Assembly: GCA_963731265.1 (NCBI GenBank) | Contig: CAVSUE010000001.1 | Span: forward strand, 1,216,001 to 1,280,000 | DNA: 64,000 nucleotides | Direction: 5' to 3' | Source of the DNA: an uncultured Verrucomicrobiae bacterium | GTDB lineage: Bacteria > Chlamydiota > Chlamydiia > Chlamydiales > Rhabdochlamydiaceae | Part shown: piece by piece, positions 3,583-60,248 of the stretch | Position numbering within the stretch: the first letter of the stretch is position 1 | Layout: every line of letters begins with the position of its first letter | The notes under the pieces: generated by a model | The model's input: the letters and a program-made list of their open reading frames with translations, nothing else | Databases searched by the model: none | Told to the model about the DNA's origin: nothing | Made by a program: the position numbers and the translations under genes

Positions 3583-3999
3583 TATACAGCTGACGCTTGA
3601 AAGTTATAGAAAATTTCAATTTCAGCACTTCAATTTTTTGTTTGTTGAAGTAGACCATGTGCAGGCACATGGTCGATGGAAACGAACAAAAAGGTCGTCG
3701 CAAAACGACGGCCGGAAGTGAAGATGCTGAAGCAGAAATTTTCCTAACTTTCAAGTGGAAGCTGTATATACAGCTGACGCTTGAAAGTTATAGAAAATTT
3801 CAATTTCAGCACTTCAATTTTTTGTTTGTTGAAGTAGACCATGTGCAGGCACATGGTCGATGGAAACGAACAAAAAGGTCGTCGCAAAACGACGGCCGGA
3901 AGTGAAGATGCTGAAGCAGAAATTTTCCTAACTTTCAAGTGGAAGCTGTATATACGGCTGACGCTTGAAAATTATAGAAAATTTCAAGTGTCAGGAGTA
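3583..3999 (+). mobile_element. Family A palindromic MITE array: two 182-bp copies (3585-3766, 3769-3950) plus a 47-bp mini copy (3953-3999), separated by TA
   Basis: 184-bp period; imperfect TIR TACAGCTGACGCTTGAAAGTTA...TAACTTTCAAGTGGAAGCTGTA; dispersed copies elsewhere in window. Confidence 0.9.
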
Positions 4000-4001
4000 T
4001 T

Positions 4002-4850
4002 TTATTTTTTTATCACGGAAAAGAATGTCGTCGCTCCCAAAATGGCGATGACTACCCCCAACGAAACAGGAATCGAGATCGAACAGGCATTTGTCAAAAC
4101 CATTTTAAGCCCCACAAAGACCAAAATCGCTGCAAGCCCCACTTTGTAGTACTTCAATTTGCCTAAATTCGCGGCCAGGATAAAGTAGAGCGAGCGCAAC
4201 CCCAAAATCGCAAAAACGTTCGAAGTGTAGACGATAAAAGGATCTGTGGTAATTGCAAAAATCGCGGGAATGGAATCGAGCGCAAAAAGAATGTCCGTCG
4301 CTTCGATCATTAGCAGCACGATCAGGATTGAGGAAGCTTTTCCCCTCGGCAAAATCTTCTTAAAAAATCGAAAACTCCACGATTTAGAGGGATCTTCTTT
4401 CTGCTTTTGCAAGGCGAACTGGATACCTGTAAAAATCAAAAAGGCTCCTAAAACAAATGAAATCCAGTGAAAGCGGCCAATCAAGCTGATTCCCACGAAA
4501 ATCAAACAGAAGCGGAATACAAGGGCTCCAAGAATCCCCCAAAAAAGAACTTTATGCTGCATTTCTTCAGAAACGCGAAAGTGGAGAAAGATCGTCAAAA
4601 AGACAAAAAGGTTGTCCACGCTCAACGATTTTTCAATGAGGTATCCCGCCAAGAACTGCAGAGCACTTTCTGGGCCAGAGGAAAAATAAACAAAAATATT
4701 AAATAAGAGGGCCAGGGCGACCCAAAAAATGGTGTGCACCCACGCATCTTTGGCTGAAGGAATTTTTTTTCGTTGAAACAACCCCAAATCCAGGATTAAC
4801 AACAAGACGATCAAGACGTTAAAACCGATCCAAAAATAAATTCCATGCAT
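4002..4850 (-). CDS. TerC/Alx family membrane protein
   Basis: EKSLSVDNLFVF, DILFALDSIPAIFA, SNVFAILGLRSLY motifs. Confidence 0.95.
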   Translation of the reverse strand: MHGIYFWIGFNVLIVLLLILDLGLFQRKKIPSAKDAWVHTIFWVALALLFNIFVYFSSGPESALQFLAGYLIEKSLSVDNLFVFLTIFLHFRVSEEMQHKVLFWGILGALVFRFCLIFVGISLIGRFHWISFVLGAFLIFTGIQFALQKQKEDPSKSWSFRFFKKILPRGKASSILIVLLMIEATDILFALDSIPAIFAITTDPFIVYTSNVFAILGLRSLYFILAANLGKLKYYKVGLAAILVFVGLKMVLTNACSISIPVSLGVVIAILGATTFFSVIKK

Positions 4851-5010
4851 GAGACTATCCCACTATTCAAATGTTTGATTTTTGTTGGATTTTTTGTCAG
4901 ATTTTGAAAACGCTTCGCAGGACATACTTGAAGATGTAGACCAAGAAGCGGTTTCAAAATATGGCAAAAAAGATACAAAAAGCAAATATTTAGAATAGTG
5001 GGATAGTCTC
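4851..5010. mobile_element. Family B palindromic MITE (160 bp)
   Basis: TIR GAGACTATCCCACTATTC...GAATAGTGGGATAGTCTC flanked by AT on both sides; near-identical copy at 45555. Confidence 0.9.
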
Positions 5011-5013
5011 ATA

Positions 5014-5186
5014 TACTGCTTCCACTTGAAAGTTAGGAAAATTTCTGCTTCATCATCTTCACTTATGGCCGTGGTTTTGCCACGGCCTTTTTGTTTGTTT
5101 CCATTGACTGCTCATACCCTCCTTGAACAAACAAAAATTGAAGCGCTGAAATTGAAATTTTCTATAACTTTCAACTGTCAGCTATA
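5014..5186 (-). mobile_element. Family A MITE, reverse orientation
   Basis: Reverse complement of the 3585 unit with TA flanks. Confidence 0.88.
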
Positions 5187-5247
5187 TATATCATCAATAT
5201 AATTGAAAGTTCAAAAAAAAGGATAGAGATGCGATAATCCCTGCCCT

Positions 5248-56956: not shown

Positions 56957-56966
56957 AGCTTTCTCT

Positions 56967-59450
56967 TTAGATATCTAGATTCTTGACGGAAAGGGCGTGT
57001 TTTTCAATAAAAGCGCGGCGCGGAGGAACATCCTCGCCCATCAACATGGTAAACATATGGTCGGCGGCGATCGCGTCAGGCAGTGTGACCCGGAGCAAAG
57101 TGCGCTTGGTAGGGTCCATCGTCGTGTCCCAAAGCTGGTCGGCGTTCATCTCTCCAAGACCTTTATAGCGTTGGAGTTCAATCCCTTTGCGCCCATTGGT
57201 GCGCAAGAGGTCGATCCCCTCTTTAAGCGTATGCACAGGTTGTTCCCGGCTTTCTTCATCGATGATGTCGAATAATTTACCATCGGCGATCAAGCATTGG
57301 TCCAGCGAGAAATTATAAGCGGAAAGACGGGTTTTTAAATCATCCAGGGCGGCCTGCTCATAAAGTTCCATGAATGCCAACCCTTTTACTCGGAAGGTTT
57401 TCATTTCTTCGGTCTGTTCTTCGATAGGGATTGCCGCGAGTGTTTCGGCCAGTTTTTGACGCTGTAGTTCTTCATCGGCTTTTTTCATCTCGGCAAGCTC
57501 CTCTTCCGAATAAACATAACGGGTCTCATCGCCTAATTTGATTTGGAATCGGGGCAGCTTTCCTTCGCTGTTTTTAGAGCCGATGAATTCGCGGAAGGGA
57601 ACGCCTTTCCGTTCGATAGATTGGTTGAGATTTTCCACATCGCGGACCACTTTAACCATATCTTCAAACTGCTCTTTGGTTAAAAAATCGGTATGGCCGA
57701 CGAGCCGGACGTGCACATCGCTCATCCCTAATTTTAGCAGGTATTCGTCCATTTCCTTTTCGCTATGGATGTATCGGCTGATTTTTTTTCGCGTCACGCG
57801 ATAGAGCGGAGGTAGGGCGATATAGATGAAATGGTTCTCGATCAAAGCAGGCATGTGCCGATAAAAGAACGTCAAAAGCAGCGTACGGATGTGGGAACCG
57901 TCGACGTCGGCGTCAGTCATGATAATGATTTTATGATAACGCAATTTCTCGAGGTTGAAACTGTCTAGTCCGATCCCGCAGCCGAAGGCAGCGATCATCG
58001 CTCCCACTTCGGTGTTCTGCAAAATCCTTTCCAAACGGGCTTTTTCCACATTGAGAATCTTACCGCGAATAGGCAGTATAGCTTGAAAACGGCGGTCACG
58101 CCCTGTTTTTGCCGAACCTCCAGCAGAATCCCCTTCGACGATGTAGATCTCGCATAGCGCTGGATCTTTTTCTTGGCAGTCGGTCAACTTGCCTGGGAGG
58201 CGGGCGCTATCAAGGGCCGTTTTGCGCAAAGTGAGCTCGCGGGCTTTGCGCGCAGCTTCGCGGGCCTGGGAAGCGAGAATCGCCTTCTCGACGATCATGC
58301 GCGAGACGACAGGATTTTCTTCCAAAAAGGCCGTGAGCTCTTCGCCGACGATCTGCTGCACAACGGATGTCACTTCGCTGTTTCCGAGGCGCTGCTTGGT
58401 CTGGCCTTCAAACTGCGGATTAGGTACTTTGGCGGAGATCACAGCTGTGAGCCCTTCGCGCATATCATCGCCGGAAACGGAGATCTTGTCGCTTTTGAGG
58501 AGATTGTGACTTTTGATATACTGGTTGAGCACCCGCGTCAATGCTGTGCTGAAGCCCGTGACGTGAGTTCCTCCCTGGCGCGTCATGATGTTGTTGACGT
58601 AAGAGTGAAGATTTTCGGTGTAGGTGTCGTTCCATTGCATCGCCACTTCGAATTCGAGGGTACCATCGGAAATTTCTTTCGACCCGAAAATGTAAATCGG
58701 TTTCGGGAAAAGTGGTGTTTTATTCTCATTTAAATACTCGACAAACGAACGCACTCCCCCTTCATAACAAAAAGAAATTTCGGTGGGCGTCGCATCTCTT
58801 TCATCGCGGAAGTTGATCTTTAAATTCTTATTCAAAAAGGCAAGTTCGCGGAACCGCTTAATCAAGATGTCATACTCATAAGCGGCAACGGTGAATATCG
58901 AATCATCAGCTAGGAATGTGACCTTTGTGCCATGTTTTGTCGACTCTCCAACCATTTTCAAAGCATGCGTGGGCTTCCCCTTGGAAAACTCCATATCGAA
59001 CATTTTGCCACTTTGATAAACTTCGACATGCAGCCTTTTCGATAGCGCGTTGACGCAAGACACGCCGACTCCGTGCAGCCCGCCTGAAACCTTATAAGTA
59101 TTCTTATCGAATTTTCCGCCGGCGTGAAGGATGGTCATGACAACTTCGAGGGCAGATACATCCCTCCCCTGTTTTTGAGATTCCTTTTCGTGCTTCCCCG
59201 TCGGAATCCCTCGTCCATCGTCCTCCACGGAAACAGAATTGTCCTTATATAAGGTGATCCAGATTTCTTTACAAAATCCTGCGAGGGCCTCGTCTACGCT
59301 ATTATCGACGACTTCGTAGACAAGCTGATGCAGGCCATTGACGTTCGTATCGCCTACATACATGCCGGGACGTTCACGGACCGCCTGCAGACCTTCCAAG
59401 ACGGTAATCGATGCTGCATCGTATTCGTTTTCTTTGGTCATCGTCGTCAT
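56967..59450 (-). CDS. gyrB: DNA gyrase subunit B
   Basis: [32 protein letters not shown] motifs. Confidence 0.98.
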
Positions 59451-59505
59451 ACCTTAAACTCGGATTTAAATTACATATACACGTCGGAAAAAAGGGGGAA
59501 ATCTG

Positions 59506-59820
59506 TTATCCGACGCGAAAATGAATGTTCTTAATCTCAACAGAGGGAAATTTTTCCCTCAAATTCTTTAATAACCGGCCTCTTTCATGTTGCGAGAGCA
59601 GGCTATACAATGTCGAATTGCCTACTTTCACAAAGAGAATCCCCCGATCAAAAGAAACTGCTTTCGTCATCGATGCAAGCTTTTCGCCGATGATCAGCGG
59701 CCACGCCGCTAAAATCAGATCGGGACGGTCGCGGTGAAGCGCGCCAATCTTGCCGAGGACTTTTGGAAGCAGATCCTTCATGTGCTTATTTGTAAGCGGA
59801 TATCTATCTGCTTTGTCCAT
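59506..59820 (-). CDS. DUF721/DciA family protein
   Basis: W..IIG...A.......G.L.V pattern; upstream of gyrB. Confidence 0.85.
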   Translation of the reverse strand: MDKADRYPLTNKHMKDLLPKVLGKIGALHRDRPDLILAAWPLIIGEKLASMTKAVSFDRGILFVKVGNSTLYSLLSQHERGRLLKNLREKFPSVEIKNIHFRVG

Positions 59821-59885
59821 AAAAAGGCCTTTGCCTGAATATATGAATCGCCGGTCAAAATAGCAAGGTCAAAAGAACCTATCTC

Positions 59886-60248
59886 TTTAACTCGACTTTG
59901 TAAATTTTTGGGCCCGCCTGCCTAGTGCCCCGTTTCAGAAATTTTTGGAATAATTTCTGCGTCAAAGCCGATATAATCGACGATCGCAAGTTGATCCGTA
60001 TTGAATTAATACGGATCAACTTGCGAAGCCTGCGGTCGTCGATTCTAGCGAGCTTTCACGCTAGAAATTATCTCAAGAATTTTTATCAAGGACCACCAGC
60101 CTATTTACTCTCGGCCGCTCGCCCAGGGTCGAACTGGGAGTTATTTAAAACAGGATGGGGTTAAAAACCCGTGCCTGTTTTAAATAACTCCCCCGAGAGC
60201 ATATATTTCGAATCCTTCCGGCCCAAAAAGTTACAAAGTCGAGTTAAA
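59886..60248. mobile_element. Family G composite palindromic element
   Basis: TIR TTAACTCGACTTTGTAAATTTTTGGGCC...GGCCCAAAAAGTTACAAAGTCGAGTTAA; two internal perfect 19-bp stems. Confidence 0.85.

Follow-up and report, generated by a model that had tools for sequence, protein, structure and literature searches.

Short palindromic repeats that reside beside or inside genes are known from several bacterial lineages. Here we describe a set of such elements in a 64,000-nt stretch of DNA, hereafter the window, from an uncultured bacterium placed in the Rhabdochlamydiaceae (contig CAVSUE010000001.1, positions 1,216,001 to 1,280,000); the elements fall into families that we number with an F, and many of them dock directly on the start or stop codon of the adjoining gene. 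Among the closest described systems are the Rickettsia palindromic elements (RPEs) of Ogata and Claverie, which reportedly lie both between genes and, in frame, inside protein genes; docking on start codons is, to our knowledge, not a described feature of these elements. The Correia elements or NEMIS of Neisseria are inverted-repeat elements of ~100-190 nt that duplicate TA, lie beside genes and are co-transcribed; they possess promoter or terminator-like features and RNase III hairpins, together with specific 26-bp ends and a site for the integration host factor. As to the repetitive extragenic palindromes (REPs), imperfect palindromes of 20-40 nt that cluster between genes, we know of none described as carrying a Shine-Dalgarno sequence (SD) plus an ATG.

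According to the accessible part of their description, REPs have heads that read GTAG or CGTC (PMC3733652). The pneumococcus contains the small repeats BOX, RUP and SPRITE, and in the available text BOX overlaps the 3' end, and encodes the stop codon, of 36 genes, and BOX modules can supply the start codons of small open reading frames (ORFs), these BOX ORFs being without a good SD (PMC3049150). Within the literature searched, and as far as the accessible texts go, this was the only work on miniature transposable elements with inverted repeats (MITEs) that takes in SDs, start codons and intergenic sites together (PMC3049150). In Coxiella burnetii, QMITE1 and QMITE2 reach 1-50 bp into functional genes at the 3' end, giving stops or short C-terminal tails; some of the insertions are in frame and, in the part of the paper at hand, all affected functional genes are struck at the 3' end (PMC5896051).

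The elements of the window share some feature with each of these systems. Like RPEs, they are short palindromic repeats of an obligate intracellular host and include in-frame inserts that are missing from homologs (family F6, 55 and 72 residues); the host, however, belongs to another phylum and F6 has TATAC...GTATA ends next to TA, and the likeness is one of behaviour only. Family F1 recalls the Correia elements by its size, TA duplication, long hairpin and one-way terminator-like hairpin, and both F1 and F6 combine TA with inverted ends. Nevertheless, the hosts are unrelated, the sequences presumably so, F1 and F2 contain no promoter above chance, and membership is not claimed. As in the case of BOX, small repeats lie on extreme 3' ends and encode stops, but BOX is modular and without TA or TAA duplications, and no docking on native housekeeping starts is reported in the available text (PMC3049150). 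With the QMITEs the window has in common that MITEs of an obligate intracellular bacterium lie on gene 3' ends, some of them in frame, whereas the accessible part of that paper does not mention start codons and gives direct repeats that are variable instead of fixed AT-only words (PMC5896051). Family F3, finally, consists of clustered GC-rich imperfect palindromes between genes, as do REPs and bacterial interspersed mosaic elements in the available descriptions (PMC3733652, PMC2817692), but its hairpins begin CCCAGG, GGGCC and CCCGG, without the GTAG or CGTC heads given there (PMC3733652).

For the phylum itself, the Waddlia genome paper, in its accessible part, describes classical Chlamydia as almost without repetitive elements and counts only repeats above 200 bp, a cut-off at which the present elements would be missed. 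The initial annotation of this DNA was aware of no such system in chlamydiae, and this stands: in the literature searched, which subscription journals are largely outside of, no description of such elements was found, including in the available parts of the Waddlia and Rhabdochlamydiaceae papers. The stop-codon side of the phenomenon is known already (BOX, QMITE); less familiar are the strict docking on start codons and the orientation rule described below.

Element families

The elements are real, dispersed repeats. Their census was taken by self-BLAST, a repeat search and nhmmer profiles of seven families, in a window in which genes are tightly packed at a GC content of ~46%. Coding repeats in the LRR and WD40 genes aside, self-BLAST and the repeat search gave matches in both direct and inverted orientation, the lowest E-value being 1e-68, and the F1 end pattern matched at 10 places in the window, versus 0 expected in 100 shuffles; the nhmmer profiles added no degenerate copies, neither in the window nor in the loci of the relative introduced below. 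The total comes to 23 copies or fragments, close to the figure of around 20 that the initial annotation had given for these 64 kb. They cover 2,964 nt, i.e. 4.6% of the window, and make up 2,797 of the 7,310 intergenic nucleotides (38%). Two small ORFs in apparent spacers (7024-7176 and 23828-24001), one of which resembles ribosomal protein L33, the other being a 57-residue basic protein, bear on this count of intergenic DNA.

Eight copies or fragments belong to F1, three each to F2 and F3, and two each to F5 and F6; to these are added F4-outer with F4-inner nested in it, one copy and a solo end of F10, and F7 and F8 inside F5. Typical sizes are ~186 nt (F1), ~160 nt (F2), ~160 nt (F4-outer without its nested element) and 165-240 nt (F6), and in the folds the two ends of F1, F2, F4, F5 and F6 pair with each other. 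The earlier figure of about ten families is a fair count, though several group into superfamilies: F2, F4-outer and F4-inner have the terminus GAGnCT in common and are possibly one such group. Of each of the palindromes F7 and F8 the window and the relative's loci together contain a single copy, and their status as repeats is unproven.

The elements have the make-up of MITEs, being small and without transposase coding capacity, bounded by terminal inverted repeats (TIRs), duplicating their target relative to an empty site (F1, F4-inner) and occurring in dispersed copies. The statement that the window holds no transposase was borne out, since none of its 55 ORFs has a transposase family in Pfam. 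F1 and F6 might derive from IS630/Tc1-mariner elements and the GAGnCT group from IS5-like elements with a 3-bp duplication; the duplications fit, and no such transposase was seen in the window or in the loci of the relative.

For comparison, genome contigs were scanned with a loose, AT-rich pattern of the F1 end (17 plain bases), which gave at least 111 stretches, 105 of them chance matches in unrelated taxa. The useful matches among those listed are five loci (L005, L010, L028, L076 and L083; together ~80 kb), all from one related metagenome-assembled genome (MAG; contigs CAWHZZ0100000x). Further copies, the lack of which would have spoken against the initial annotation, are present here: the five loci hold eight copies or part-copies of F1, with 92-94% identity to the F1 of the window, as well as kin of F2, F4-outer, F4-inner and F6 and further palindromes. 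A tblastn search of 53 window proteins against the five loci found no orthologous genes. F1 and F2 had no match in the plasmid collection, Rfam gave no match at the gathering threshold and no tRNA genes were found. When the ORF crossing the F2-with-F1 composite described below was used as a protein query, only 7 matches covering ~40% of it were obtained, which are of no use as a copy count.

Locus L028 of the relative also contains, ~400 nt from an F1 copy, an IS607-like pair (7509-9564), i.e. a serine recombinase with a MerR-type helix-turn-helix and a TnpB/Cas12f-like protein, and near it a gene for an AbiEii-type nucleotidyltransferase toxin (5098-5961). The IS607-like element, the only insertion sequence seen in the window and these loci, was considered as the driver of F1 and rejected, as it misfits the TA duplication and the inverted ends.

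Target duplication and movement

Family F1 has inverted ends of ~45 nt and folds into a long hairpin. One copy (3583..3768, plus strand, with TIRs and flanking TA) begins 1 nt past the pgl stop TAG (3579-3581), and is in tandem with a 100% identical second copy (3767..3952, plus), one TA being common to both; a mini-derivative that consists of the two ends only (3951..3999, plus) follows and stops 2 nt short of the terC stop (4002-4004, minus). On the other side of terC an F1 copy in the opposite orientation (5009..5192, minus) points its GGAAG end toward the gene. Of the partial copies, one (28241..28368, plus) is undocked between convergent genes, 71 nt and 49 nt from their stops, and another (47349..47464, minus) is likewise undocked, 18 nt past the stop of the TLC transporter gene. 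In a third (40759..40933, minus) the interior is replaced by an F6 fragment (40807-40900), and its GGAAG end lies directly against the ATG of def (40761-40759, minus). The remaining copy (42287-42476, minus) is nested in F2 and forms with it a composite (42204..42538).

This nesting supplies an empty site. Inside F2, at 42287 as well as in L005, F1 has TA on both sides, whereas the intact F2 copies at 4849 and 45553 have a single TA at that place; F1 is therefore a TA-duplicating MITE. The composite recurs in L005 (9898-10247, 83% identity over 340 nt) between rpe and cofD, a site that is not orthologous to the tpiA/xseA site in the window, which implies that the composite moved as one unit. 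A similar argument holds for the TAA-flanked group. F4-outer (18759..19091) has inverted ends of ~62 nt and contains F4-inner, a 166-nt palindrome (18816..18985); the mirror arm of F4-outer keeps a single, unoccupied TAA, from which it follows that F4-inner duplicates TAA. A relative of F4-inner is present in L076 (18753-18935).

Four to five of the F1 copies in the related MAG are mutually 100% identical, which suggests recent movement, unlike the dispersed copies of the window, which are 85-90% alike. This contrast may reflect different histories of activity or transfer of elements between lineages. The relative apparently has a homolog of the TLC transporter with 89% identity in protein, to be set beside the 92-94% identity of F1 between the two genomes.

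Docking on stop and start codons

Most elements had initially been placed on, or within a few nucleotides of, named stop and start codons. For the stops this is correct in eight of the nine cases (pgl, ugd, sugar transferase, HAD, rnr, maf, LRR and mgtE), where the codon touches an element or is at most 5 nt away; direct reading of the tpiA stop revealed no repeat, just two small hairpins. All eight named starts are docked; the distance is 5 nt for HEAT and 0 nt for the other seven (terC, par1, rnr, mpg, def, xseA and the Nudix gene idi). The docked ATGs of def, xseA and mpg, and those of CofD and pyruvate phosphate dikinase in the relative, coincide with native N-termini by Pfam coordinates; together with homolog N-termini this fixes the starts, and docking is no artefact of ORF calling.

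At the stops, a solo end of F10 (11258..11281, plus) holds the ugd TGA (11267-11269), and the full F10 copy (12916..13019; ~95 nt, inverted ends of ~15 nt, direct repeat flanks of 7-8 nt) lies between the stop of the sugar transferase gene (TAA, 12921-12923; 0 nt) and the ORF at 13021. A 62-nt F5 palindrome (36543..36612) sits directly past the LRR stop TAA (36546-36548), and at 59884..60249 a pair of F5 ends encloses F7 (59939-60082) and F8 (60136-60192) and abuts with its right end the mgtE stop (TAA, 60244-60246, minus). F4-outer spans an entire junction: its flanking TAA is on the left the HAD stop and on the right overlaps the rnr ATG (19092) as TAATG. Palindromes in the relative also occupy the accB-accC and the gatC-gatA spacer; the one in the gatC-gatA spacer (in L028) is flanked by TAA left and right, and downstream of it the native SD is kept.

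In F2, a near-perfect palindrome of 160 nt with AT flanks, the flanking AT is the AT of an ATG in four of four copies. In the window these are the copy at 4849..5012, the left AT of which belongs to the terC start (4850-4848, minus), the copy at 45553..45717, the left AT of which belongs to the Nudix/idi start (45554-45552, minus), and the composite, the right AT of which belongs to the xseA ATG (42537); the fourth is at cofD in L005. In that locus the opposite end, AT together with the two opening bases of F2, rebuilds the TGA of rpe upstream, from which the site before insertion can be read as an ATGA overlap. Without the F2 copy at 4849, the F1 copy at 5009 would directly adjoin the terC ATG, i.e. 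first F1 and then F2 was stacked on one start codon. The possibility that F2 is a shared RNA leader was rejected in view of its palindromic symmetry, its nesting with F1 and the restoration of a stop codon by one of its ends.

Whether codons are closer than chance expects was among the checks that the initial annotation had proposed. Under a null of uniform position in the element-free spacer, evaluated over the 15 sites with room, 10 sites have zero distance to the codon (Fisher combined P=6e-5, to be taken as indicative only, since sites and spacer lengths were curated by hand after seeing the data), and zero distance is found also where the spacer measures 58-122 nt. For F1 separately, four of eight right ends are on an ATG versus 3.1% expected for random intergenic TA (P=6e-5, indicative for the same reason); this expectation (p=0.031) derives from the 342 TA sites of the element-free intergenic DNA of the window and its 11 TATG starts. 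Docking thus beats the null. Starts are docked exactly even in divergent regions with ample space, in which other sites were available, namely at terC, xseA and idi.

Orientation of F1

The orientation of F1 is as non-random as its position. Its right-hand TA gives the A of the ATG of def, of terC (before the arrival of F2), of an ABC-2 permease in L010 and of pyruvate phosphate dikinase in L076, and two further genes have their ATG 1 nt or 3 nt beyond the right end. In all six start-adjacent cases it is this right, GGAAG end that faces the start, and in none the other; the left end, in the readable cases, is 1-27 nt past the upstream stop codon or overlaps it. A GC-rich hairpin followed by a T-run is present on one strand of F1 only (e.g. 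3710-3696, minus strand, in the first copy, and 5067-5087, plus strand, in the copy at 5009). Relative to the docked gene this terminator-like strand is antisense at terC, at the ABC-2 permease in L010 and at the dikinase in L076; behind the convergent terC gene it runs in sense, and the hairpin could act there as the terC terminator.

In-frame insertions of F6

Family F6, with its ends TATAC...GTATA, is also found in frame inside genes. The copy at 32077..32245 (plus) occupies, in frame, codons 9-63 of the HEAT-repeat gene, inside the signal peptide, and these 55 residues are absent from all 13 other aligned sequences, namely 12 homologs and a shorter database entry for the gene of the window itself. 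The 12 homologs begin with a short basic, hydrophobic leader, then the conserved GQVS; the protein of the window would read as such a leader if the insert were removed, and the flanking residues are conserved on both sides. The homologs indicate that ATG 32056 is the ancestral start, whereas the database entry (571 residues) starts at GTG 32251, directly after F6. The signal peptide has thus either gained 55 residues by insertion or disappeared. In L005, a gene (7065-9176) for a conserved chlamydial protein of 703 residues, without a Pfam family but matched by 835 library proteins (E up to 0.001), contains a longer F6, which adds 72 residues after a conserved FKWxEWG motif; these are absent in six of six aligned homologs, with conserved residues on both sides. 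Two of the four F6 copies are thus within genes, both in frame, and in this respect F6 behaves like the Rickettsia palindromic elements. The F6 fragment within the F1 copy at def explains why the def-secG spacer matches the 5' end of the HEAT gene (32089-32158).

Translation and transcription signals

The flanking repeats of F1 (TA), F2 (AT) and F4 (TAA) regenerate an ATG or a stop codon. The SD-like words that had been noticed at element ends are indeed there, i.e. GGAGG in F3, GGGA in F2 and GGAAG in F1, but only that of F3 is strong. Scored against an 8-nt anti-SD motif, F3 binds with -9.5 and -5.8 kcal/mol, values that 1.1% and 11.6% of random 17-mers equal, whereas the end words of F1, F2 and F4 give -3.1 to -3.9 kcal/mol, equalled by 20-35% of random 17-mers; the right end of F1 has -3.3 kcal/mol versus 0 to -1.8 for its left end. 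Undocked genes have a median of -2.65 kcal/mol and many are without any SD. In the folds the SD word of F3 is unpaired, while those of F1, F2 and F4 are within the TIR stem, and these would therefore be sequestered in a read-through transcript.

In F3 the signal is part of the repeated unit, which comprises three GC-rich hairpins of 20-25 nt, two of them with TTAA loops, and which looks like a REP cluster. All three copies have GGAGG or AGAGG, 3-4 nt and then ATGAA, and in all three the SD end faces the start codon. At 15549..15670 (minus) the ATGAA that comes after AGAGGACGG forms the par1 start (15553, minus), and the other end is 6 nt past the par2 stop. The copy at 21620..21740 (plus) fills the entire rnr-mpg spacer, with the rnr TGA (21624-21626) inside the left flank word GTGAA and with GGAGGACGG plus ATG making the mpg start (21736). 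The third copy (31964..32055, plus), in which the first hairpin is missing, shares bases at its left edge with the maf TAA (31963-31965), and its ATGAA ends directly before ATG 32056, the native HEAT start by homolog N-termini. The genes par1 and par2 are two tandem paralogs (14810-16406; 247 and 244 residues) that have no Pfam family, enclose the first of these F3 copies and are 76-88% identical in nucleotides over ~140 nt.

Origin of the pattern

We consider it probable, at roughly 60%, that the window is populated by non-autonomous mobile elements, that their AT-only targets fall on stop/start junctions and that selection filters their orientation. The elements would comprise TA-duplicating MITEs (F1, F6), a GAGnCT superfamily that duplicates TAA (F4-outer, F4-inner) to which the AT-flanked F2 is probably related, REP-like hairpins in a cluster (F3), and small palindromes flanked by TTAA or TAA (F5, F10). 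They would insert into AT-only words, which in packed genes at this GC content would amount to stops and to the junctions TAATG, ATGA, GTGA and TATG. The flanking repeat and the first bases of the element would then regenerate both the stop and the ATG, so that both reading frames would stay whole, and purifying selection would remove those insertions that break genes or block expression. The expected survivors would be F1 in a single orientation, with its terminator-like hairpin antisense to the operon and its GGAAG end toward the ATG, F3 with its GGAGG end toward the ATG, and F6, where inside genes, in frame. Since the target words (TA, AT, TAA, TTAA, TGAA) are part of the junction words, such a target preference combined with survivor bias can yield most of the pattern. 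Simple survivor bias, which the initial annotation had named as the alternative to evolved ends, would in this way go a long way but explain terC, xseA and idi poorly.

Several observations weigh against this interpretation. The cognate transposase sharing the ends, for which the initial annotation had proposed to look, did not turn up, as no autonomous insertion sequence with matching ends was seen in the 64-kb window and the ~80 kb of the relative, the loci of which were moreover chosen since they contain F1. The AT flanks of F2 may belong to the element instead of being a duplication: AT is on both sides in three of the four copies, the composite of the window has AC on the left, and there is no empty site for F2. 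Five of the 15 informative sites are undocked (28241, 47349, L010 9986, L010 4348 and L076 18753), and at about half of all sites the ancestral spacer is 0-14 nt, so that docking is forced there and uninformative; to this comes the hand curation that makes the P values indicative. An insertion at the ATG in the divergent regions terC/tsaD, tpiA/xseA and idi/TLC, finally, severs promoter and SD from the gene, which ought to be more harmful than landing farther upstream. Selection alone explains start docking at terC, xseA and idi worst, unless F2 brings a promoter, and promoter-like sites in F1 or F2 do not exceed the shuffle expectation, which leaves an outward promoter in F2 unsupported.

The exact docking in these roomy divergent regions and the stacking of F1 and then F2 on the same terC ATG speak for the idea of adapted termini. 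Here families would have been selected as lineages for ends compatible with translation (stop-restoring bases, a spaced SD, ATG or AT, no terminator in the sense direction), which would give them access to operon junctions and start codons from which other mobile DNA is barred. We regard this as a possible but less probable account. The first two bases of F2 that restore the TGA in L005, the asymmetric ends of F1 with their orientation in six of six cases and the strong unpaired GGAGG 4 nt before ATGAA in the repeated unit of F3 (-9.5 kcal/mol) speak for it as well. The words of F1, F2 and F4, however, are weak and paired, many genes in this genome lack an SD so that little needs rebuilding, and selection on single insertions would yield the same orientation bias; the sample, moreover, is small (three F3 and four F2 copies). 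The orientation bias of F1 indicates that the sequence of the element matters for survival, without showing evolution for that purpose. The proposal of the initial annotation that element ends have evolved to rebuild translation signals hence holds in so far as the rebuilding is visible; evolution for that purpose is well supported for F3 only and is a live rival for the other families.

A broader version, about which we are similarly tentative, is that environmental chlamydiae host a guild of mini-elements specialised on gene punctuation. Each family might target an AT-only junction word and rebuild the stop, F3 also the ribosome-binding site and the start, and hold its terminator in antisense only. 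It is equally speculative that the elements would in this manner spread through operon junctions, stack on one ATG and, in the case of F6, enter frames without breaking them.

We think it improbable that the elements are in the first place regulatory cassettes of the host, i.e. cis modules such as leaders, outward promoters, one-way terminators or RNase III sites, which would owe their place at gene ends to that function and whose mobility would be secondary or extinct. The abutment of all four F2 copies on an ATG would suit such modules, as would the one-way terminator-like hairpin of F1 behind the convergent terC and lactonase genes and the 92-94% identity of F1 between genomes whose TLC transporter is 89% identical. 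They would not be expected, however, to have inverted ends, flanking duplications, nesting and F1 tandem arrays, to lie in frame within genes (F6), to leave truncated copies at undocked sites or 100% identical copies within the relative, or to neighbour genes that are functionally unrelated, and no Rfam family was matched. It is most improbable that codon closeness is mere chance or annotation, with the ATG that comes first behind a stop inside the element taken as the start, or with short spacers as the sole cause; the spacers of 0-14 nt at about half of the sites and the initial use of starts from a mechanical ORF list would be in keeping with this. Start mapping and the distance test largely refute it: for def, xseA, mpg, CofD, pyruvate phosphate dikinase and HEAT the docked ATG is the start by Pfam and homolog N-termini, and distances are zero even in spacers of 58-122 nt.

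Relevance for chlamydial genomes

If the pattern extends genome-wide, the start codons annotated in chlamydial MAGs would need correcting, as would their maps of operons and predictions of small ORFs, a case in point being the database entry for the HEAT protein, in which the signal peptide is cut short because the entry starts after the F6 insert. The elements would in addition provide a natural test of the upstream sequence that an ATG needs under weak use of the SD, and F6 would make this a second, independent intracellular lineage in which palindromic repeats are turned into protein segments. Should there in fact be a guild that is specialised on gene punctuation, it would amount to a translation-aware strategy of insertion, from which new leaders and stretches of protein would arise, in a phylum long held to be nearly free of repeats.

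Other features of the window

The named database relatives of the window proteins have the labels Rhabdochlamydiaceae, Chlamydiales or Chlamydiota. Encoded in the window are a TLC ATP/ADP transporter and F-box, LRR, WD40 and HEAT proteins; eukaryote-like domains such as LRR, WD40 and F-box are typical of amoeba-associated chlamydiae. Two stretches, 34000-36000 and 48000-50000, have a GC content of 37% versus ~46% elsewhere and contain hypothetical genes and long AT-rich spacers; they may be foreign DNA. The F-box protein gene is at 39117-40208, and coding tandem repeats are present in the genes for the LRR protein (66 nt, 35688-36439) and the WD40 protein (120 nt, 51440-52315).

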